From: an uncultured Gammaproteobacteria bacterium
Lineage (GTDB): Bacteria; Patescibacteriota; Microgenomatia; Daviesbacterales; UBA10151
Assembly: GCA_964459095.1 (NCBI GenBank)
Contig: CAYWKL010000002.1
Coordinates: 2,858 to 66,857, forward strand
DNA length: 64,000 nucleotides
Reading direction: 5' to 3'
Within the stretch, counting starts at the first letter, position 1. Each line of letters opens with the position of its first letter. Position numbers and translations under genes: made by a program. Positions 3,150 to 61,218 of this stretch are shown here, in pieces. The notes below the pieces were generated by a model. That model ran no database searches. It saw only the letters and a list, made by a program, of their open reading frames with translations, and was not told the DNA's origin.

Positions 3150-3980
3150 ATGGAAGAACTAAAAACATTCGAGCAGGTCATAGGGATACAGAGATATAGC
3201 AACTCAACAAAGAGGATTTATAGGTTTCATATTAAAAACTTCTTGATATTTTGTAGAGGCAAGCCTGCCCAAGATAAAATTTTGGAGTATTTATTCAACC
3301 TGGAAAGGTACAAACCATCATCGCTGAACATAGCAAAATACAGCATAATTTACTTTTTCAGAAATATTATGAATCAGGAGATAATTACCAAAATACCTAA
3401 AATAAAAAGGGAAAAATTATTGCCAAAAACGATTGATAGTGATGCGATAATGAAGATGGTAAACATAACTTCCAACCTCAAGCATAAAATATTGATAGAG
3501 CTTTTGTACAGTAGTGGGTTAAGATTGGGAGAGGTTAATAAAGTACAATGGACTGATTTAGATTTCAAGAACAGATTAATCTTTGTAAAGGGCAAAGGCA
3601 ACAAAGAAAGGTATACCAAGCTATCTGAAAGAGTTATTGGTGATTTGATGAAATATAAAGAAGTGAGGAATGCTAAGGGAGATAACAAAAACCCCTATGT
3701 GTTTGATAGTGAGCAAAGACCAGAAACCCATATATCCAAAAAGACAGTTCAGAAAGTTTTGGAGAATGCTGCAAGAAAACTGAATTTGGATGTTAGGGTG
3801 TCACCCCATAAGATAAGGCATTCTTTTGCAACTCATAGTTTAGAGAATGGAATTGATAGTAGGTTTATTCAGAAGATGCTGGGACATTCAAGCTCAAGAA
3901 CAACAGAGATTTACACACAAGTTACAAGAAATAGTCTGAAGAACATTGAAAGTCCTTTGGATGTTGCTTGCAGAGTGTAG
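3150..3980 (+). CDS. Tyrosine recombinase/integrase (XerC/D-like).
   Basis: Catalytic R (SGLRLGEV), HKIRHSFAT (HxxR), GHSSSRTTEIYTQV (catalytic Tyr). Confidence 0.85.
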   Translation: MEELKTFEQVIGIQRYSNSTKRIYRFHIKNFLIFCRGKPAQDKILEYLFNLERYKPSSLNIAKYSIIYFFRNIMNQEIITKIPKIKREKLLPKTIDSDAIMKMVNITSNLKHKILIELLYSSGLRLGEVNKVQWTDLDFKNRLIFVKGKGNKERYTKLSERVIGDLMKYKEVRNAKGDNKNPYVFDSEQRPETHISKKTVQKVLENAARKLNLDVRVSPHKIRHSFATHSLENGIDSRFIQKMLGHSSSRTTEIYTQVTRNSLKNIESPLDVACRV

Positions 3981-4559: not shown

Positions 4560-4754
4560 GTGATAAGCATCAGTGAAGAGTTTGTTGATTTCATTGCTTT
4601 CTTGGATGATAATGAGGAAAAGAGAGAGTGGTATGTAAAGATAATTGAAGCCAGCCACTTTGTAACATTCATAACCAAGGACGGAAATACTGTTTCTATA
4701 CCCTCAAGCAGGGTTTTGAAGATAAAAAAGAGGAGAGTTGCTTCAGATGATTAG
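4560..4754 (+). CDS. Hypothetical small acidic protein overlapping the MCM start.
   Basis: ORF track only. Confidence 0.3.
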   Translation: MISISEEFVDFIAFLDDNEEKREWYVKIIEASHFVTFITKDGNTVSIPSSRVLKIKKRRVASDD

Positions 4755-7700
4755 TGAAAGAATATCTGAGTTTGCAGACTTCTTTGCAAAGAACTACATG
4801 GCGGAGCTGACACAAGCTAAAGGCTGCATCATAATATCATTCACAAGCCTGTCAGAATGGAATGTTGACTTGGCCAGTGAGCTTCTTGGTTCTCCCGAAG
4901 ATTATTTGAAGATGGCAAACAAGGCTATTCAAACGCTTATTGATGAAAGAGAGATAACAGTGAGATTCACAGGGCTTCCAAATACACAGAATAGGAATGT
5001 TTGGGAAACAAGAAAAGAGGATGTTGGCAAGTTTATTGCATTGACGGGCATAATCAACAAGTCATCCAGTATAATTCACTTATGTGAAACTGCAAAATTT
5101 GAGTGCTCGAATTGTGGAACGGTGATGTCTATTGTTCAGAATGACGGCAAGTTCACAGAGCCTTCCAAATGCAACTGCGGAAGAAAAGGAAAGATGAATT
5201 TGATTGACAAGGAATTCACGGACATAATCAAATTGGGAGTTATAGACGACCTCATGGCAAGGGAGAATGTGGACAGAAGTATCGCAAGAGAAAAGCTTGC
5301 AATATTATCGCAGGACCTGACTTCGCTCGAAGTTGACCAGAAGATAAAGCCAGGTAAAAAGGTAGTTCTAAACGGCTACTTCAAATATCAGCAGAAATCC
5401 GGCAGTGCAGAGTTTGATTCCATCTTCCACGTTAATTCAATGGAATTTGTGCAGGTTGGGTGGGACACTGTCAAGGTGAACACAATAGAAGAATCACAAA
5501 TTAAAATGTTGGCAAAACAGGATGATATAATAAACAGGCTGGCAGAATCAATTGCTGATGTTGAAGGATTTGCAGAGGCAAAAAAAGCATGCTTATTGAT
5601 GCTAGCTGGCGCCCCCCATAAATATGATGAAAATGGGCACCTTGTATCAAGAGGGACCACCCATATCCTGTTAATCGGCAATCCCGGAGGCGGGAAAACT
5701 TTCTTAGCCAAAAGAGCAGGTTCCATCTCTCCAGTCTATTCTTTTGCGTCTGCTGCGACAGCTTCCGGAAAAGGGCTTGTGGCTGCAGTCAGCCAGGATA
5801 AGGATATAGGCGCATGGGTTATATATCCAGGAGTTGTGGCAATGGCTAATAAGGGTGTGTGTATCTCAGGCAATCAAAAAATTATGACTAGCAGGGGACT
5901 TTTATCAATTAAAGATGTTAAGCAGGATGATAAGATATTATCTTTTGGTTTTGACGGTGTGAAGGAGAAGCATGTATCCGGACTTATTTTTAACGGGGTT
6001 AAGGAGGTTGTACAACTAACACTTTATTCAGGAGACACAATCACATGCACGCCGGACCATAGAATAATGACCAGTGGCGGATGGAAGCCTGCTGGAGACT
6101 TAACCACAAAGGATTATATCAAAAATTACTTTACTTCAATTACCAACTTTGAGAACAGAGAGGATATTGAAGATGGATGGCTTTTTGGATTTGCATTGTC
6201 AGATGTGTGGTACAACACCTCCTTAAAGAAGGGTTCCAAAAATTGTGTGCGAAATGTCATGTCTTACAGTTCTTCCATAATAAACAAAGAAAGGTCGGAA
6301 TATGTGCATAAACTGCTGATTGGAAGGGGAATCAGGAGTATACATGTTAAAAATATTCCTTCCAATAAGCATCTTGTAGCTGGAAAACAGCAGAAGTTTA
6401 AGGAAGGGGTTACTTATAGATTTTCAGATAAGAAGCTGCATAATGAAATAAAAGATATGATGGAGAGCAATCTCCTCGTAAAATCTACTGATGATTTTTA
6501 TGCTGGATTTTTAGCGGGTATTCTGAGTACAGATGCTTGCATTAGCCACAAGAAAGGAAAGTATGGGATTAAGCATGAAATAGCAGTGACTCTGACAAGA
6601 TACAACAAGTCCAGCCAAACAAAAGAATGGAACAGAAACATTCAGATATTAGTGAACTCATTATTTCATCGCTTTGGAATTTTAAGTTGTATCAGGGGGG
6701 ATAAAATTATAATATCATCACTTACAAGCTACAATCTTTGTGTATCACTGCTCAAAGAGTTTATGGTTGGCAAGAATAAGGAAAAGTTATACCACGTTTT
6801 ACCAAAAAAGAGGATAAGCAGCTATGATGACTGGATGGATGATGAATATGTAAAATGGTTTTGTTCAATCAAATTTAAAACAAGCAAAACTGTCAAATAC
6901 GGATTACATTCTTCTATATGGTACTCACGTAAAAAAAAGAGGGTAAGCTCGCAATTGATGAATATACTGTTCAAATTTTGGGAGGAGATAACAGACGAGG
7001 AGTTCTGGCCGCCTGCTAAGGATTATTTGTTAAACAAAATAATTTCTGTGGAGAGGGCGGGAAGCCAGGAGGTGTATGACATCACTATTCCTGAAAATCA
7101 TAATTTTATGTTGACTGGGGGGTTAGCCCATAATTGTGTCATTGATGAAGTGGATAAAACACATAAAGATGATTATGGGGACCATAACAACGCAATGAAT
7201 GATATGGAATGTTTGATAGCCAAGGGCAATGTGAAAGGGAAGCTGGAGACAGAAACAAGCTATTTGGCGACAGCAAACCCGGAAAACAGGATATTTTCCT
7301 CGTATGATACATATGCAAACCAGATAGATATGCCCAAGGATTTTCAGGATAGGTTTGACCTGATATTGCCGATGGTGTCCCCAACTGACAAAAAAGCCCA
7401 GGAAAAGATAATGGATATAATGCTTGGAAGACACACTGATGATAAAAGCAAAAAAAGCTGGAATCCGGAGTTTACCCATAATTTTATTCAGAAGTATGTG
7501 GCATATTGCAGAAGGAGTAATCCCAACCCAATATTATCTCCAGAATTGTTTGCATACATAAAGAAGAAACTCATTGAGCTGATGAAACCAAGAAGCGAGG
7601 AGCAGTCAATGATATCTTTCAGGCATCTTGAAAGCATACTAAGGTTTGAATATGGAGCAGCAAGGTTAAGGCTTAGGGATATAACTGAAGAAGATGTGGA

Positions 7701-8001
7701 CCTTGCGTTTAACCTCAAGAAGAAATCATTTATAGAGCTTGGGATAATATCAGAGGCAGGGGGATTCAGCTGGGCAAAGCTTGAGGAGGTAGAGGAAAAA
7801 GTTATATCTGAGAAAGAAATAATTCATAACATACTGAGGGAACTGATGCCAGATGGCAGCACCATGGCTGAATGGCACGAGATAATTAAGAGATGCACTG
7901 AGAAAGGGATAGAAGAGGATAAAGCTGAAGAGCACATCCAGAAGCTGATTACAAAGGGAGATTATTTTGAACCGAAGCGGGGATTCCTGAGGAGGATATG
8001 A
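4738..8001 (+). CDS. mcm: Archaeal-type MCM replicative helicase (662-aa extein) interrupted by a 425-aa intein. N-terminal C4 zinc finger (CSNCG...CNCG), Walker A GNPGGGKT, Walker B reconstituted as GVC|VIDEVDK, C-terminal winged helix.
   Basis: Motif match to the MCM AAA+ core. The ORF-track start at 4738 is TTG. A likely ATG start is 4747. Confidence 0.85.
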   Translation: MLQMISERISEFADFFAKNYMAELTQAKGCIIISFTSLSEWNVDLASELLGSPEDYLKMANKAIQTLIDEREITVRFTGLPNTQNRNVWETRKEDVGKFIALTGIINKSSSIIHLCETAKFECSNCGTVMSIVQNDGKFTEPSKCNCGRKGKMNLIDKEFTDIIKLGVIDDLMARENVDRSIAREKLAILSQDLTSLEVDQKIKPGKKVVLNGYFKYQQKSGSAEFDSIFHVNSMEFVQVGWDTVKVNTIEESQIKMLAKQDDIINRLAESIADVEGFAEAKKACLLMLAGAPHKYDENGHLVSRGTTHILLIGNPGGGKTFLAKRAGSISPVYSFASAATASGKGLVAAVSQDKDIGAWVIYPGVVAMANKGVCISGNQKIMTSRGLLSIKDVKQDDKILSFGFDGVKEKHVSGLIFNGVKEVVQLTLYSGDTITCTPDHRIMTSGGWKPAGDLTTKDYIKNYFTSITNFENREDIEDGWLFGFALSDVWYNTSLKKGSKNCVRNVMSYSSSIINKERSEYVHKLLIGRGIRSIHVKNIPSNKHLVAGKQQKFKEGVTYRFSDKKLHNEIKDMMESNLLVKSTDDFYAGFLAGILSTDACISHKKGKYGIKHEIAVTLTRYNKSSQTKEWNRNIQILVNSLFHRFGILSCIRGDKIIISSLTSYNLCVSLLKEFMVGKNKEKLYHVLPKKRISSYDDWMDDEYVKWFCSIKFKTSKTVKYGLHSSIWYSRKKKRVSSQLMNILFKFWEEITDEEFWPPAKDYLLNKIISVERAGSQEVYDITIPENHNFMLTGGLAHNCVIDEVDKTHKDDYGDHNNAMNDMECLIAKGNVKGKLETETSYLATANPENRIFSSYDTYANQIDMPKDFQDRFDLILPMVSPTDKKAQEKIMDIMLGRHTDDKSKKSWNPEFTHNFIQKYVAYCRRSNPNPILSPELFAYIKKKLIELMKPRSEEQSMISFRHLESILRFEYGAARLRLRDITEEDVDLAFNLKKKSFIELGIISEAGGFSWAKLEEVEEKVISEKEIIHNILRELMPDGSTMAEWHEIIKRCTEKGIEEDKAEEHIQKLITKGDYFEPKRGFLRRI
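5860..7134 (+). mobile_element. Intein (Cys1 ... His-Asn, +1 Cys) with a LAGLIDADG homing-endonuclease domain (LFGFALSDVWY, YAGFLAGILSTDACI), inserted in the MCM Walker B motif.
   Basis: Boundaries verified on the sequence: tgt at 5860-5862 begins CISGNQ..., and ...GGLAHN ends at 7134 followed by Cys. Splicing restores GVCVIDEVDK. Confidence 0.8.
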
Positions 8002-11334: not shown

Positions 11335-11517
11335 ATGTCAGCATTAACGCCGGAAACTACGGTAACTATATTGATTGTAGGATATATAATAACCTTTGCC
11401 TATAGCGTCTATATGGCAATATTGAACTGGAAGCAGGCAAAGGTCAAGGATATACTACTTGAGACAAACAGTATATTGAGGAGGATAGAAAAGAAGATAA
11501 AGGAAAAGCATGGCTGA
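11335..11517 (+). CDS. Small single-TM protein.
   Basis: ORF track. Confidence 0.4.
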   Translation: MSALTPETTVTILIVGYIITFAYSVYMAILNWKQAKVKDILLETNSILRRIEKKIKEKHG

Positions 11518-12223
11518 AAAAAGCAAAATAGAATGGACGAATGCTTCATGGAATTGTGTTACAGGCTGCACTAAAGTTAGCGCTGGCTGTACTAATTGCT
11601 ATGCAGAAACACTTGCATTAAGATTGCAGAAAATGGGGAGCAAGAGATACAGGAATGCATTTACATTAACATTGCACGAGGATGCTTTAAACCTGCCATT
11701 AAAGTGGAAGGAACCCAAGAAGATATTTGTAAACAGCATGTCTGACCTGTTTCATAAGGATGTGCCCGATGACTTTATTGACAAAGTTTGGGAAGTTATG
11801 GAAAAGGCAAACTGGCATATTTATCAGATACTGACAAAGCGACCGGAACGGATGGCGCAGTATAGCTGGACCAAAGAGCAATTATCTAATGTGTGGCTTG
11901 GAACTTCTGTTGAAGATTTAAGAGTCAAGGATAGGATTAAATTATTGCAAACTTCAAATGCCAAAATTAGGTTCATAAGTTTTGAGCCTTTGATTGGGGA
12001 TGTTGGAGAACTTAATTTATCCAACATACACTGGGTTATTGTCGGCGGAGAATCTGGAAAAAATCACAGACCAATTGAAAGAGAATGGGTTACAAATATT
12101 TTAGCCCAATGCAAAAAACAGAATGTTGCCTTTTTCTTCAAGCAATGGGGTGGATTAAAGTCGAAATCAGGTGGAAGACAGCTTAATGGCAGGACTTATG
12201 ATGAGTATCCTAATGCAGTATAA
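11510..12223 (+). CDS. Phage Gp37/Gp68-family protein (DUF5131).
   Basis: N-terminal IEWTNASWNCVTGCTKVSAGCTNCYAE signature and the C-terminal ESG/QWGG region typical of the family. Confidence 0.85.
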   Translation: MAEKSKIEWTNASWNCVTGCTKVSAGCTNCYAETLALRLQKMGSKRYRNAFTLTLHEDALNLPLKWKEPKKIFVNSMSDLFHKDVPDDFIDKVWEVMEKANWHIYQILTKRPERMAQYSWTKEQLSNVWLGTSVEDLRVKDRIKLLQTSNAKIRFISFEPLIGDVGELNLSNIHWVIVGGESGKNHRPIEREWVTNILAQCKKQNVAFFFKQWGGLKSKSGGRQLNGRTYDEYPNAV

Positions 12224-19026: not shown

Positions 19027-20856
19027 TTGTATTATCTGTATTACCTTGTTTCCAAAATGCATGAATCTGACTTTGCTTTGCAGTGGCTGGATTACCTAGG
19101 CAATGAAATATATAACAACGGAAAAAGGATATTTAAATATGAAGGCCAGCCCAAATACGATATTTCTAGGCTAATCAGCAGGATAAGGATTGGTGAGGAG
19201 CTTGGGTCTGAGAAGAATATAGAATACACATTTATGTCTTATTCTGAACTTCAGAAGGTGGGGTATGTTGTATTTGCCGGAACTGACCTTATCTGGAGGG
19301 AGAGGCAGCAGTATTATTACAAGCTAAAGAAGAGGGACAGGGACAGTGTAGGAATCAATGAAAAGGTCTTTGATAGGAAGCTTAAGGTTCAGCATGACCC
19401 CACAAACAGAAGAATTCGTTTGGTTGGGGAGGATGTGCTGCCACCACAAAAATCACCCATAAATTCAGGAGTAGGCCCCTGGATAGTTTACGACGCAGAT
19501 GCTCCAAAAGAAAGTGATACCCAGGCAAGAAGGGATTTCGCGCTCAGCAAGGAGGGAATCAGGGCATCCTTAAGGAAATGGCAGTATGGGGATAACAGCG
19601 AAGAAGCCGAATATGCTGAAATCAAGGAGCTTCCGATACTCCTGTCGGATGAAAAGTATATAGTATGCATACGGAAGAATATAGTATGCCAAAGGATTAT
19701 TGTGGTAGGGGAGCCGGGTTTTGGTAAATCAATTTGTTGCAACTCGCTTGCAGGAAGAATCTTCTATATATGGGAAGACAGAGTAGGGTGGCTCATTGAC
19801 CCGTTAAACCAGTTTAATGATATAAGCATGCCGCAGGCATTTGACAAGTTTAACAAGATAAATGCATTAATTAATAATGAGCCAAAGCCAATCCCGGCAA
19901 TTCAGTTGTATCTTGCATGTAAGCATAAAGTAGATATGAAAAATAAGGATATTAGCCTGCTGTTAACCTTAGATTTTCTGGAGTTTCTGAACAAATACAA
20001 ATTTTATACCTTTGGCATAAAGGATATGGATGTGGGAGACACTATAAGATACCTCATGGACTTTATTAAGGAGATAAAAGATGTTACTACTTCTGAGGAG
20101 ATAAGTGAGATAATGTTGGATAAGGTCCCAAATGCCCACAAGGATAAGGGAATGAAGGCTATGATATACAAATGGGCAAACACATTTGAGTATATATTTA
20201 AGGAGAAGTTTACTTCCAATATGTACTTGGATGACAAGAAAGCCGCCCATTCATTGCAGCTTAAGCTGAAAGATGGCACGGAGATGGAAGGCCACCCATT
20301 CATTATGTGCTATGAAGCAGGGTTAATTCCTGTTTTGAATATGTCAGCCGCGCGCCGCCAGAGATGGATAAGGAATTACCTTGCTGACCTTATGCAGAAG
20401 ATTGTAGCACATCAAAGCAATGTTCCTGAGGAAAGGAAGCACAGGGTGTGGATTATTGCTGACGAGCTGAATGAGATATATGAAATTGGAAAAAAGAAAG
20501 ACAATGCATTTTTAGCATTTGAAGAATTATTTAGGCAGGGAAGATTCAACAATATAGGGTTTATAGGGAATACGCAGTCTCTTGAAAAGCTGAATCCGGA
20601 GATGTACAAAAATGCAACACATATCTGCTGTGTTTATATGAAGGACTCAAAAGACAGGAAAAGGGTGGGGGATACTTACAATCTCGACAGGGAGGAATAT
20701 GACAAAATTGAGTCCCTCAAGGAGCAGGAGATGATGGTGTTCAGCAAGGAGCCTTTCATAACTTATGACAGGTGGGGCAAGAGGAGGGTTACAGACAGGA
20801 AATGGTTCAGGGGAAGGATACTGCCGCCTATAAACTTCCACAAGGTGCCGGGTTGA
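19027..20856 (+). CDS. HerA/FtsK/VirB4-superfamily P-loop ATPase (Walker A VVGEPGFGKS, Walker B WIIADELNE, downstream FIGNTQS sensor Gln).
   Basis: Motifs and wide Walker A-B spacing. The ORF-track start is TTG. A likely ATG start is 19057. Confidence 0.55.
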   Translation: MYYLYYLVSKMHESDFALQWLDYLGNEIYNNGKRIFKYEGQPKYDISRLISRIRIGEELGSEKNIEYTFMSYSELQKVGYVVFAGTDLIWRERQQYYYKLKKRDRDSVGINEKVFDRKLKVQHDPTNRRIRLVGEDVLPPQKSPINSGVGPWIVYDADAPKESDTQARRDFALSKEGIRASLRKWQYGDNSEEAEYAEIKELPILLSDEKYIVCIRKNIVCQRIIVVGEPGFGKSICCNSLAGRIFYIWEDRVGWLIDPLNQFNDISMPQAFDKFNKINALINNEPKPIPAIQLYLACKHKVDMKNKDISLLLTLDFLEFLNKYKFYTFGIKDMDVGDTIRYLMDFIKEIKDVTTSEEISEIMLDKVPNAHKDKGMKAMIYKWANTFEYIFKEKFTSNMYLDDKKAAHSLQLKLKDGTEMEGHPFIMCYEAGLIPVLNMSAARRQRWIRNYLADLMQKIVAHQSNVPEERKHRVWIIADELNEIYEIGKKKDNAFLAFEELFRQGRFNNIGFIGNTQSLEKLNPEMYKNATHICCVYMKDSKDRKRVGDTYNLDREEYDKIESLKEQEMMVFSKEPFITYDRWGKRRVTDRKWFRGRILPPINFHKVPG

Positions 20857-50311: not shown

Positions 50312-50472
50312 AATGCGAGAGGCTGTACACCCTAACTCTTTGAGGGAGTACCCTCTCCCTTATTATATGGCTGCAGTCGTTATCTTCTCCCATAATCTAC
50401 CTTTGATTTGTAATACCTAAACTTATATTTAAATCTTTCCATTTTCAAAAACAAAAAGTATTTATACTAGTT

Positions 50473-50916
50473 ATGCTTATAAATAAAAATAATATTATAC
50501 ACGATAAAACGATGAACCATAATTTTGGCATTCACCTGACACTTGATATTGAAAACTGTGACGCCAAAAAACTTGTAGACAACAAACTCATTTACGCCTT
50601 GCTTAATAATCTTCCAGCGCAGTTTTCTATGAATAAGATGACTCTTCCCTACGTTGTGGAATGGAAGGACAAGTTTGCAGACACTCCGGGGATATCGGGA
50701 TTTGTGATGATTGCAGAGTCGCACATAAGCATACACACCTTTCCTGACCAGCGATACGCTTTCGTGGATATCTTCTCGTGCAACCATTTTGACGCCAAAG
50801 GCATGTCCCAAAGGATTATGAGAGAGCTTGGCTCCAGCAAGGCCGAGAAGCACGTGATAGAGCGCGGGAAGAACTTTGAAAGAAATATTGCTTCTCCTCC
50901 TGAAATACTTGTGTAA
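50473..50916 (+). CDS. speH: S-adenosylmethionine decarboxylase proenzyme, pyruvoyl-dependent class 1b (SpeH/SpeD-like; an arginine-decarboxylase paralog cannot be excluded). Carries the self-cleavage site in IAESHISIHTFPD and the VDIFSC motif.
   Basis: Strong family signature. A more likely start is ATG 50512 (MNHNFGIHL...) with a TATA-like cttataaata about 27 nt upstream. This is a lone plus-strand gene inside the minus-strand block and is visibly GC-richer than the flanks. Confidence 0.85.
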   Translation: MLINKNNIIHDKTMNHNFGIHLTLDIENCDAKKLVDNKLIYALLNNLPAQFSMNKMTLPYVVEWKDKFADTPGISGFVMIAESHISIHTFPDQRYAFVDIFSCNHFDAKGMSQRIMRELGSSKAEKHVIERGKNFERNIASPPEILV

Positions 50917-50926
50917 TAAACCAAAA

Positions 50927-51190
50927 TTATTTTTTTGCACGACCATGCAACGCGCATTTATACAAAATTCTTGCTTCCTTTTGGTTCAAATTCAATATTG
51001 ATGTAATCTCTGCAAAATCCTTCTTCTCGATATCTCTTAATTGGATGATTGTGTTCTTCAATTCTTGGCTCCACTTTGTATGATGTTTATGGGTTTTCCT
51101 ACTCTCTTTCAACTCCCTCTTAAGATTGACAATAATTCTCCTTAACATTTTATTCTCCTGCTTCAACTCTTTAATCAATAATTTGTTCAT
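50927..51190 (-). CDS. Small basic protein with a C-terminal HTH-like segment (FAEITSILNLNQKEARILYKCAL).
   Basis: Motif resemblance. Confidence 0.35.
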   Translation of the reverse strand: MNKLLIKELKQENKMLRRIIVNLKRELKESRKTHKHHTKWSQELKNTIIQLRDIEKKDFAEITSILNLNQKEARILYKCALHGRAKK

Positions 51191-58893: not shown

Positions 58894-61218
58894 TTAATCA
58901 TTCATTTTAACTTTCATTCCGAAAGGAACTTTGTCTAAATCTACACCATCTTTTGTTATTACCCATAATGTGGGATACTTCATCTTATCTGGCCATGGGG
59001 TGTACCCATCAGTAAAAATAATAACTACTGAGGGATTAATTCGTCTTTTAGCAATCTCATCTATAGCAACTCGTAAATCAGTTCCGCCCATTCCCTTATA
59101 CTCTCTCCTTATTTCATCCCCTTGATTATACTGGTGATGGGAAGTCACTTGAACGTCTGTCGTTAATAAGTGTAAATTCATCTCAAACTGCTGCAGCAGC
59201 CCATTGCACTCTGACAGGAACTGCTGTTGCGCTTTGCCGCCGGTAGAGCCTGAAACATCCACGATGACAGTAACATCCCCCAGGCTCTCACCAGTAATAG
59301 AAGGCATATACATATCCTGGTGTATAAACCTGCGATTAGATGGGAGCCAACTGAAATCAGACTTTGCTGAAGTAATCACAAACTGCCTCAGCATATTCCT
59401 CCAATCCAGCTTTGGAGCCAATAATTGCTCAATGAACACATCCATCCCAGCAGGCAGTTTCCCTGCCATCTTTGCCTGTTGCCATGCCTTTGACAACTGT
59501 ATTGCCCATTCCTTCTCAAGCTCATCCAACTCCTGCTTTGAGCCTTGAATATCCTTATGAACATCAAAAGGCTTGACTTCCTGTCCGTTTACCTTAATGT
59601 TGCCTTTGGCGTCTATCTCAATCTTTATGTCTCCCTTCTCGTATCTTCTGTAGCCGTTCTTGCCTTTGCCGTTCATCTCAGGCAGCTTGTTGTAGATTTC
59701 CTCTGCGGTCATATTCTCAAACTTCTCGTTGTATAGTCCGCCTTCAGGAACAAAATTAAACTCTTTCTTGAGGATAGCGTTGATGACAAAGTCACAATTA
59801 TGAACCACAACATTATTTACCATATAATTATGATTTTCTGTAGATAAATTATAAACTATTCCACTATACGTCTCTTTTTCTATTTTGACAATAGGGGTTA
59901 CAAAATAATTTCCTAAATCTTTCCACCTATAATTGTTACTATCAATAGTTTTACCATTTAGTATTCGAGTGGTAGTCTTAAATTTCCTCCATTCTAAACA
60001 ATATAGAATTTGTTTGGGAAGTATATGTTTTAGAATCATTCTCTCATCTTTCTTCCTCACACTAAAATTGCTAAAAATATCTAAACGAGTAAGCAACATT
60101 TGTAGTTGTAGAATCAACTTCTTGCTTGCTGAACCTACAAAGGTAGTAGTCCCATCTCTGTATATATGTCCATCTCCACAAACATATCCATCAATAAACT
60201 CTTTAATTATTTCCTCATCTTTATTATACAATATAAAATCTGGAATCTTCTTGTTTTTAGCACCCCTACCAAACCAATCAGTAAACGCCCTCTCTAGCAG
60301 TACACTGGATATATTTAATTTTATAACATTCCCCCTATCCTCTCTTTGAATATGTGTGTTAAAATTATTATTAACAATCTTATAAATTTTATCTAAATAT
60401 TTCTCATCTGTTTTCCCTAATCCTAAATTAAACCCTTGATTGCCACTTGAACTGCCTTCAGCAAGATATAATCCCATCAACCAAGCAACATCTTTATTAA
60501 GTATAATCTTCTTGTTCTTAATATTATGTCCATATCTATGAGTCTCTTTAGCATATTTAATTAAATCAAATTCATTAGGTGTTTCTCTTGGTTTAAGTTT
60601 AGGCATCACTAAATAACAATTCTTATCAAGGTCTTTAGCCCCAACCCATTCAAATCTCTTCTTAAATGTTATTGGATTCCCTATTTTCCTTCCTCTTCTC
60701 AAAATCAAAAAGGGATGTTCAGGGGTAACTTTAATCTCCCCTATTCCATTCGCTTTAATTTTATATAAATCACCAGAATATTCCCGTTTCATAACATCAT
60801 TAACTTTATTGTTTCCTTCAAAACATAATATGTCTTGGTCTACCTTAACATTCTTGATTTCTTCATAATCGCCAGATACTACAGTCTCTGATGTAAAGCA
60901 TGCAAAATTCCAGCGTTCAGGCTCTCGCTCCCCCATCCTTATCCCATGTAAAAACACATTATGGAGTACTTCATGCCCCAAAACAAATATTTTATCTTTG
61001 TCACTCAAGCTCTCCGCAAATTCTTTATTATAATATACCCTTTTGTAATCTGTAGCAAATGTGGGTATACTATTATCTTCAACCATCGGCAAATGTAACG
61101 CCAAATTTCCATAAAACGGAAAATCTAAGAGAAGAGCTATTCTTGCTTTAATCAAAGAATCTTTAAGATTCATCTCACACCTCGCCAAACCTCTGAGTTG
61201 CAAACAACCAAAACTCAT
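58894..61218 (-). CDS. DUF2201-type putative metallopeptidase (HEVLH) plus vWA (MIDAS DVSGST) protein, interrupted by a 368-aa intein. The extein is about 406 aa. An alternative start is Met16 at 61173.
   Basis: HExxH motif, N-terminal PFYGNLALHL pattern, C-terminal vWA-like DxSGS...TDG. Intein boundaries verified on the sequence. Confidence 0.75.
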   Translation of the reverse strand: MSFGCLQLRGLARCEMNLKDSLIKARIALLLDFPFYGNLALHLPMVEDNSIPTFATDYKRVYYNKEFAESLSDKDKIFVLGHEVLHNVFLHGIRMGEREPERWNFACFTSETVVSGDYEEIKNVKVDQDILCFEGNNKVNDVMKREYSGDLYKIKANGIGEIKVTPEHPFLILRRGRKIGNPITFKKRFEWVGAKDLDKNCYLVMPKLKPRETPNEFDLIKYAKETHRYGHNIKNKKIILNKDVAWLMGLYLAEGSSSGNQGFNLGLGKTDEKYLDKIYKIVNNNFNTHIQREDRGNVIKLNISSVLLERAFTDWFGRGAKNKKIPDFILYNKDEEIIKEFIDGYVCGDGHIYRDGTTTFVGSASKKLILQLQMLLTRLDIFSNFSVRKKDERMILKHILPKQILYCLEWRKFKTTTRILNGKTIDSNNYRWKDLGNYFVTPIVKIEKETYSGIVYNLSTENHNYMVNNVVVHNCDFVINAILKKEFNFVPEGGLYNEKFENMTAEEIYNKLPEMNGKGKNGYRRYEKGDIKIEIDAKGNIKVNGQEVKPFDVHKDIQGSKQELDELEKEWAIQLSKAWQQAKMAGKLPAGMDVFIEQLLAPKLDWRNMLRQFVITSAKSDFSWLPSNRRFIHQDMYMPSITGESLGDVTVIVDVSGSTGGKAQQQFLSECNGLLQQFEMNLHLLTTDVQVTSHHQYNQGDEIRREYKGMGGTDLRVAIDEIAKRRINPSVVIIFTDGYTPWPDKMKYPTLWVITKDGVDLDKVPFGMKVKMND
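59797..60900 (-). mobile_element. Intein (CFTSETVV ... VVVHN, +1 Cys) with a LAGLIDADG homing endonuclease (LMGLYLAEGS, FIDGYVCGDG) inside the metallopeptidase-vWA gene.
   Basis: RC of gca at 60898-60900 gives Cys1. RC of att at 59797-59799 gives the terminal Asn, followed by Cys. The extein junction ERWNFA|CDFVINAIL is contiguous. Confidence 0.75.

Follow-up and report, generated by a model that had tools for sequence, protein, structure and literature searches.

What does a short decarboxylase gene do when it lies alone on its strand in a virus-like genome, and which substrate would its product use? The question is raised by a 64,000-nucleotide stretch of contig CAYWKL010000002.1 (positions 2,858 to 66,857; assembly GCA_964459095.1), referred to here as the window, in which an open reading frame (ORF) of 147 aa runs from ATG to stop at 50473..50916 on the plus strand. 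A first-pass annotation had described it as a recently captured S-adenosylmethionine decarboxylase (AdoMetDC) gene of the SpeH type, with arginine decarboxylase as the fallback. Our best explanation of the whole, to which we assign a probability of roughly 0.6, is that a SpeDA-like enzyme of DPANN lineage is carried by an archaeal virus-like element and would feed the polyamine metabolism of its host.

Family, fold and active site

The product of the 147-aa ORF matches Pfam family PF02675 (AdoMet_dc) over the full model (1-107/107) with E=2.2e-24 and 86.3 bits (cutoff 25); it also matches PHROG 3125, 'S-adenosylmethionine decarboxylase', as well as the solved class 1b AdoMetDC proenzymes 2iii, 1vr7 and 1tlu from Aquifex and Thermotoga (E 1e-10 to 1e-9). 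An AlphaFold2 model built on 42 homologues has a pLDDT of 92, and Foldseek superposes it on the Thermotoga maritima AdoMetDC (1tlu/1vr7) with TM scores of 0.84-0.86, normalised to the target structure, and an rmsd of 1.6 A. The ORF is a real gene, and its product has the class 1b AdoMetDC fold.

The cleavage-site motif reads IAE|SHISIHTFPD. In the alignment, Glu82-Ser83, His88 and Cys103 (Glu69-Ser70, His75 and Cys90 in the 134-aa form discussed below) correspond to Glu62-Ser63, His68 and Cys83 of T. maritima; Ser, His and Cys are invariant across the 42 homologues and Glu is nearly so. Self-cleavage, pyruvoyl formation and catalysis all require the equivalents of T. maritima Ser63, His68 and Cys83 (Li, Liang, Phillips, Michael, J Biol Chem 2023, PMC10407285). 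The Glu-Ser pair, encoded at 50716..50721 (+), is the predicted self-cleavage site, with Ser83 (Ser70 in the 134-aa form) as predicted pyruvoyl precursor, while the catalytic and processing His88 and the catalytic Cys103 are encoded at 50734..50736 and 50779..50781 (+), respectively. The proposal of a pyruvoyl-type proenzyme of the AdoMetDC family is thereby borne out by family, by fold and by the presence of the Ser on which it depended.

Cellular relatives and substrate

Besides true AdoMetDCs, the family includes neofunctionalised enzymes acting on arginine (SpeDA) or ornithine (SpeDC), with cellular as well as phage examples (PMC10407285; Li et al., PNAS 2023, PMC9992855), and phage-borne homologues acting as arginine decarboxylase (ADC) or ornithine decarboxylase (ODC) provide a direct precedent (PMC9992855). 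All named proteins among the best 120 homologues of the viral protein belong to Woese-, Nano- or Aenigmarchaeota. The best matches among GTDB species representatives, at 48-57% identity, carry Woese-/Nanoarchaeota or Nanoarchaeia titles; a few have others, e.g. Aenigmatarchaeota, or come from uncultured metagenome-assembled genomes (MAGs) with the labels Methanosarcinales or archaeon. Cellular homologues reach 57% identity at most, and an active-site core of 55 residues is nearly identical in the alignment of viral and DPANN proteins.

Gene neighbourhoods were probed by tblastn, with references taken from Pfam-checked loci plus the Escherichia coli SpeE. In 37 of the 56 DPANN loci the decarboxylase gene lies at most 4.4 kb upstream of a gene for agmatinase (PF00491) or of aguB (CN_hydrolase)/aguA (PAD_porph), and many of these polyamine loci also hold speY (PF01916), which encodes a deoxyhypusine-synthase-like homospermidine synthase; one more cellular contig shows the order Arginase-DS-SET-AdoMet_dc. 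Spermidine synthase (speE) was detected by the SpeE probe in none of 80 cellular loci, the same probe serving as its own positive control by detecting speE beside two marine viral copies, and no member of the Spermine_synth family occurs among 47 downstream neighbours. Homologues from Ca. Woesearchaeota and Ca. Diapherotrites, which come from speY/speB and speY/aguA-aguB clusters, have been purified and both decarboxylate L-arginine, with no activity on ornithine or lysine; other candidate-ADC homologues were expressed in speD-deletion E. coli, and none restored spermidine synthesis (PMC10407285).

Because the nearest cellular clade sits in agmatine clusters that lack speE, and because the assayed DPANN homologues are arginine-specific, we favour arginine: the viral protein is probably an arginine decarboxylase that would convert arginine to agmatine and CO2. 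Its likely membership of the DPANN SpeDA group draws support from where it falls phylogenetically and from the clusters in which the genes of its relatives lie. The neighbour-joining tree, whose bootstraps were run with a custom routine, puts the viral clade (80% bootstrap) beside or within the DPANN clade, a long way from T. maritima and Aquifex and from the marine viral copies linked to speE. Identity is 28-32% to the AdoMetDCs of T. maritima and A. aeolicus and 33-35% to the speE-adjacent marine viral copies. The phylogenetic check suggested by the first-pass annotation was to compare the protein with SpeH and with PdaD; the first half places it with DPANN homologues, while the PdaD profile PF01862 gives no Pfam match to the decarboxylase at E<=1. 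What had been the fallback substrate is now the favoured one and SpeH/AdoMetDC the less likely, with the qualification that the enzyme would be an ADC of the SpeDA type and not of the PdaD fold. For this clade the label 'Adenosylmethionine decarboxylase' is probably a misannotation.

Several points weigh against this assignment. Bootstrap support for grouping the viral and DPANN proteins by themselves is 30%, and 62% once L057, a single locus, is included; this is moderate, and a substrate shift on the separate viral branch is possible. The AdoMetDC equivalog TIGR03330 is missed marginally, with 75.0 bits against a cutoff of 75.65. True AdoMetDCs are reported to share an invariant Pro that ADCs do not conserve (PMC10407285, Fig. 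8); the viral protein keeps the Pro of HTFPD, and if this is the Pro in question it does not favour ADC, though ADCs may keep it as well. The accessions of 20 candidate homologue clusters include none of the assayed members PIN80235 and PIN84875 (the DPANN enzymes) and PIS27863. By tblastn the element itself contains no agmatine-using, speY or speE gene, and the pathway logic rests on host genes outside it; the host, in turn, is read from just two things, the MCM helicase gene described below and the decarboxylase phylogeny.

Part of this speaks at the same time for a true AdoMetDC (SpeD/SpeH), whose product, decarboxylated AdoMet, would go to a host spermidine synthase in the manner of cyanophage speD. 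The near miss of the TIGR03330 cutoff fits such an enzyme, every residue for processing and for catalysis is kept along with the HTxP Pro, the best database labels say AdoMetDC, and true speD is carried by many marine phages (PMC9992855). However, the names on these MAG proteins were assigned automatically. There is no speE in the window or in the 80 loci of the nearest homologues, although the probe worked on the distant marine viral copies; genes of the nearest clade lie within clusters leading from agmatine to homospermidine, and clusters of this kind are also the source of the two assayed, arginine-specific DPANN homologues (PMC10407285); and identity to known or speE-linked AdoMetDCs is just 28-35%. 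We regard a true AdoMetDC as doubtful, while taking it more seriously than any of the rival readings that follow.

The same loci show further recurrent features. More than 20 DPANN loci carry, 3' of the decarboxylase gene, one or two GNAT/FemAB-like genes of ~300 aa (PF13480 Acetyltransf_6, PF09924 LPG_synthase_C), located ~0.1-2 kb downstream and often between decarboxylase and agmatinase, which makes them a recurrent partner of the polyamine cluster (L014, L023, L025, L028-L030, L032, L035-L042, L045, L047-L049, L051-L053, L055, L056, L058 and L062). A SET-domain gene stands between speB and speY in several loci. In Micrarchaeota and relatives (L074, L078, L079 and L083), AdoMet_dc is joined to a hydrophobic N-terminal domain, ~170 aa in size but longer in L079; the fusion proteins have 298-366 aa, and immediately after their gene comes a deoxyhypusine-synthase-like one. 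Such a protein would be a decarboxylase anchored in the membrane.

Age, constraint and composition

Two collinear relatives of the element were found via the closest protein homologues, L088 (16.4 kb, decarboxylase 91% identical) and L092 (4.6 kb, 80%). The gene occupies the same place and orientation in both, and both of its flanks are collinear with the window. Nucleotide identity between the window and these relatives is 75-83% overall; the gene and its flanks have diverged equally (78-83%), the gene itself standing at 78-80%. Pairwise ratios of nonsynonymous to synonymous substitution (dN/dS) are 0.07-0.14 at dS 0.7-1.2. At the protein level, the decarboxylase is 91% identical between window and L088, against 72-89% for the neighbouring proteins compared. 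The gene is flanked only by short repeats at chance level, so that nothing indicates a mobile cassette.

As to layout, in the block from 32.8 to 64 kb the decarboxylase gene is the only plus-strand gene supported by homology, the other ORFs backed by homology or conservation being on the minus strand. Genes called independently on L088 comprise 51 on the minus strand and, on the plus strand, the decarboxylase alone. The lone-plus-strand layout, which recurs in all six related contigs examined, is also seen in L092, L089/L090/L091, L094 and L095/L096. The earlier description of a sole plus-strand gene inside a minus-strand block is confirmed.

The first-pass annotation also called the gene noticeably GC-richer than its surroundings and read this as the mark of recent capture. 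Within the window it is mildly so: GC is 41.4% for the ORF and 43.7% for the 134-aa coding sequence (CDS), against 35.8% for the window and 34.8 +/- 4.9% for the other window genes. Even so, 10% of the 444-nt windows across the stretch are at least as GC-rich as the ORF, 3 of 92 genes equal the decarboxylase gene, and its L088 orthologue has a z of ~1, with 9 of 51 L088 genes equally GC-rich; cellular copies of the gene likewise average 3 GC points above their own loci. The gene also has the lowest synonymous-codon likelihood of the 92 window genes (z about -3). Its GC skew is ~0 versus +0.3 to +0.45 in every other gene (+0.32 in the comparison of window genes), also at third positions, in a window gene set filtered on positive skew; the unfiltered L088 set gives the same outcome. 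Third-position skew in L088 tracks the physical strand, at -0.16 for the decarboxylase and +0.48 for coding on the opposite strand. The real compositional oddity is the GC skew, not the GC content, and since a skew of ~0 is what a reversed gene has under strand-asymmetric mutation bias, it is no sign of foreign origin.

A recently acquired, compositionally foreign host gene, unadapted to the element, would account for the GC excess, the lowest codon likelihood and the skew of ~0. It would not account for synteny in L088 and L092 at dS 0.7-1.2 with identity like that of the flanks, for the same lone-plus layout in the more distant L089, L094 and L095, for a closest cellular homologue at 57%, or for an L088 orthologue that is no GC outlier; the skew follows the strand, and cellular copies share the high GC. 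We consider recent capture highly improbable and largely refuted. Because the gene holds the same site at dS 0.7-1.2 under strong purifying selection, it is instead an old, selected resident of the element lineage.

One of the more distant relatives deserves separate mention. L089, a Hainich groundwater contig of 46.8 kb of which 12.5 kb was read, has a decarboxylase 64% identical to that of the window, alone on its strand, whose gene overlaps a convergent gene for a PRK-family kinase and adjoins a long run of glycosyl-/methyltransferase genes. Its DUF5131 protein shares 76% aa identity over 242 aa (tblastn) with window positions 11510-12223.

Other readings of the enzyme

A pyruvoyl-dependent ODC of the SpeDC type, making putrescine directly, would have company in several uncultured freshwater phage homologues that are ODCs (PMC9992855), and the FSCN-FD motif after the catalytic Cys is common to the viral protein and to SpeDC domains. 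The viral protein lacks, however, both the Gln/Thr/Phe/Tyr pattern diagnostic of such enzymes and their insertion of three residues ahead of the cleavage Ser: it has IAESHISIHTFP...YAFVD where SpeDC domains have QLIETSLxSGHFA...VYxD (supplementary Fig. S5 of PMC10407285), with GFVMIAE|SHISIHTFP versus GFSLVQLIET|SLVSGHFA around the cleavage site. The genes of the cellular relatives, moreover, adjoin those of enzymes acting on agmatine, for which an ODC would have no use, and we hold this substrate to be very unlikely. Least probable of all is a catalytically inactive protein with some other role, e.g. in regulation or as a binding partner in the way of the trypanosome prozyme. Inactive domains of the AdoMetDC fold are known, among them the fusion domain of V. 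vadensis and, from the fold matches, the prozyme of T. brucei, but they characteristically lose the cleavage Glu-Ser, His and Cys that are here invariant under strong purifying selection.

Start codon, promoter region and antisense frame

The ORF that begins at 50473 is real, but translation probably starts at the ATG at 50512, since L088 has a 2-nt indel and stop codons in the equivalent of 50473-50511 and the homologues all begin with MxxFG, at M14 of the 147-aa ORF in the alignment. The L088 and L092 orthologues are 405 nt long and colinear with the 134-aa CDS. The most likely CDS of the AdoMetDC-fold, SpeDA-like pyruvoyl decarboxylase proenzyme is therefore placed at 50512..50916 (+), encoding 134 aa (MNHNFGIHL...), and the in-frame 5' extension at 50473..50511 (+) would be non-coding, probably promoter or 5' region.

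The 118 nt upstream of the gene are nearly invariant in the window, L088 and L092, despite a silent-site dS of 0.7-1.2 in the gene. They contain a TATA-like box, TTATAAAT, at 50477..50484 (+), centred ~31 nt 5' of the ATG at 50512, and a second TATA-like element, TATTTATAC, at 50459..50467 (+). Both are invariant in these three diverged genomes, so the TATA-like sequence previously noted ahead of the gene holds up. A further block at 50410..50433 (-), invariant over 50410-50428 in the three genomes, contains TTTAAATA on the minus strand, ~33 nt 5' of the ATG (50393) of the leftward gene. From conservation and spacing, the TTATAAAT/TTTAAATA region looks like a divergent pair of archaeal-type promoters, and the decarboxylase mRNA would be leaderless or have a short leader. 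No Shine-Dalgarno motif precedes the ATG at 50512, no sigma-70-type promoter is correctly placed at the gene, and its 3' end has no bacterial-type hairpin terminator; a run of seven T at 50930..50936 (+), 14 nt past the stop, is a possible oligo-T archaeal terminator, and L088 and L092 are T-rich at this position without being identical in sequence. Across the element, a genome-wide analysis of TATA positions shows no clear positional peak, and Shine-Dalgarno-like motifs precede about half of the genes; this survey neither favours nor disfavours an archaeal host.

It should be noted that an antisense ORF of 159 aa (50467..50946, minus strand) covers the decarboxylase gene fully and exceeds it in length. 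It is a shadow ORF and not a gene: its matches elsewhere are only the antisense of decarboxylase genes, at lower identity, and domain, structure and dN/dS all back the sense frame. Gene callers that favour strand continuity may be misled by the longer antisense ORF, which would hide the real decarboxylase gene.

The carrier element

The gene is flanked on both sides by genes of the element. These include a tyrosine integrase (3150..3980, plus strand; PF00589, E=5e-40) and, at 4738..8001 (+), a replicative helicase of the MCM family (MCM, MCM_OB, MCM_lid and MCM_N) interrupted by an intein (Intein_splicing, aa 393-799). A 609-aa protein at 19027..20856 (+) resembles a packaging ATPase or terminase: PHROG 2666 'terminase large subunit' matches it with E=1e-10 over aa 451-574 only, and for the same stretch the best solved structure is the STIV B204 packaging ATPase, a weak match at E=0.011. 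At 58894-61218 lies a DUF2201 metallopeptidase/VWA-like protein with an intein and a LAGLIDADG domain (aa 136-474); its L088 orthologue has 390 aa and lacks the intein, and the intein has therefore been gained or lost recently in the element lineage. The window further encodes an SPFH protein, a DUF5131 protein and ~100 small ORFs without matches.

MCM is an archaeal and eukaryotic replication protein, and the fact that the element encodes it is the main evidence for reading the element as archaeal. It is most likely an archaeal virus or provirus, a virus being probable over another kind of mobile element. It may not be a tailed virus; no capsid or portal gene was recognised by PHROGs or by a PDB sequence search of the window proteins. 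The window contains no tRNA and has no nucleotide match to GenBank phages. As to the host, a search with the N-terminal extein of MCM gave only 8 metagenomic matches, and nothing in the DPANN loci matches the other window proteins; a search for the exact decarboxylase protein turned up only a 1.1-kb Logan contig. Lying inside a virus-like genome, with element genes on both sides, and kept in relatives, the decarboxylase gene is a probable viral auxiliary metabolic gene, and the earlier suggestion of an auxiliary polyamine gene on a virus-like mobile element stands.

Two observations concern the organisation of the element. The cumulative GC skew peaks at ~31-32 kb, where transcription flips from plus to minus (the switch lies near 32.0-32.8 kb); this may mark a replication origin or terminus, or reflect transcription polarity alone. 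To the left of the integrase, at 615-2521, two minus-strand ORFs of 304 and 313 aa have a GC of 42-45%, near-zero GC skew, in contrast to the remainder of the element, and no Pfam or PHROG match, and the region may be host flank or the attachment-site boundary of a provirus.

Proposed role

In the explanation we prefer, the gene would be transcribed early, or independently, from its conserved TATA-type promoter and against the surrounding gene flow. The proenzyme would cleave itself between Glu69 and Ser70 (134-aa form), the Ser becoming the pyruvoyl cofactor, and the mature enzyme would decarboxylate arginine to agmatine and CO2. Host agmatinase, or agmatine deiminase with N-carbamoylputrescine amidohydrolase, would then take agmatine to putrescine, and host homospermidine synthase (speY) would lead on to homospermidine, so that infection would bring a rise in putrescine and homospermidine. 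Agmatine might also be used as such.

That last possibility can be taken further. Archaeal TiaS uses agmatine to form agmatidine at position 34 of tRNA-Ile2, which is the sole way to read AUA. Among Ile codons, AUA accounts for 46% in the element (40 per 1000 codons) and for 41% across the DPANN loci. A virus infecting DPANN archaea (Woese-/Nanoarchaeota) might thus keep the decarboxylase mainly to raise agmatine itself and not only polyamines, a speculation that we think unlikely to be correct; if true, the virus would boost a tRNA-modification substrate in a genome-reduced host, a viral function that we did not find described in the literature searched.

To our knowledge, few viruses of ultra-small archaea are known, with almost no auxiliary genes. 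If substrate and host are confirmed, viral manipulation of polyamines and agmatine would extend to viruses of ultra-small, metabolically dependent archaea, and the gene would offer a cheap sequence marker linking such viruses to their hosts.

Comparison with known systems

Viral polyamine genes are known, as are (since 2023) viral AdoMetDC homologues that have switched to arginine or ornithine, and the present gene is best judged against these cases. Its nearest counterparts are the SpeDA enzymes of DPANN, Marinimicrobia and others (PMC10407285), with which it shares fold, length (~130 aa) and catalytic residues; the DPANN proteins are its nearest sequence neighbours, at 48-57% identity with a near-identical active-site core. 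Unlike them, the viral gene stands alone on its element, without speB, aguA/aguB or speY, is transcribed against the flow and belongs to a clade of its own (80%).

The class 1b AdoMetDC of T. maritima (TM0655; 1tlu, 1vr7) has the same fold, the Glu-Ser pair, the His68/Cys83 equivalents and HTxP, but identity is 26-28%, in the viral protein FSCN replaces FTCG after the catalytic Cys, and the clade neighbourhoods contain no spermidine synthase. PdaD (PF01862) of methanogens and Thermococcales would carry out the same reaction with the same cofactor chemistry, but its fold is unrelated and there is no sequence match.

The phage homologues of PHROG 3125 (PMC9992855) are likewise viral auxiliary polyamine genes of the same fold; the set comprises cyanophage speD, the arginine decarboxylase of pelagiphage HTVC201P and freshwater phage ornithine decarboxylases. 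Identity of the viral protein to any GenBank phage copy is, however, 27-46%, and its carrier, with an MCM gene, is read as an archaeal and not a bacterial virus. The closest phage-database homologue, at 46%, lies unannotated at 2339-2707 of LR756501.1 / LR756503.1, an uncultured 'huge phage' of 735 kb. The HTVC201P enzyme groups with ornithine enzymes, whereas the viral protein falls in another clade, and a large insertion sets apart the marine viral copies L002-L006, of which two adjoin speE. In the searchable literature we found no report of an AdoMetDC-fold gene in an archaeal or DPANN virus. New here is a lineage on an archaeal-type, MCM-encoding element, akin to DPANN arginine decarboxylases, long kept and, as its promoter region suggests, separately transcribed. 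For its proposed role the closest parallel is the pelagiphage, whose ADC is thought to feed the agmatine-converting enzymes of the host (PMC9992855).

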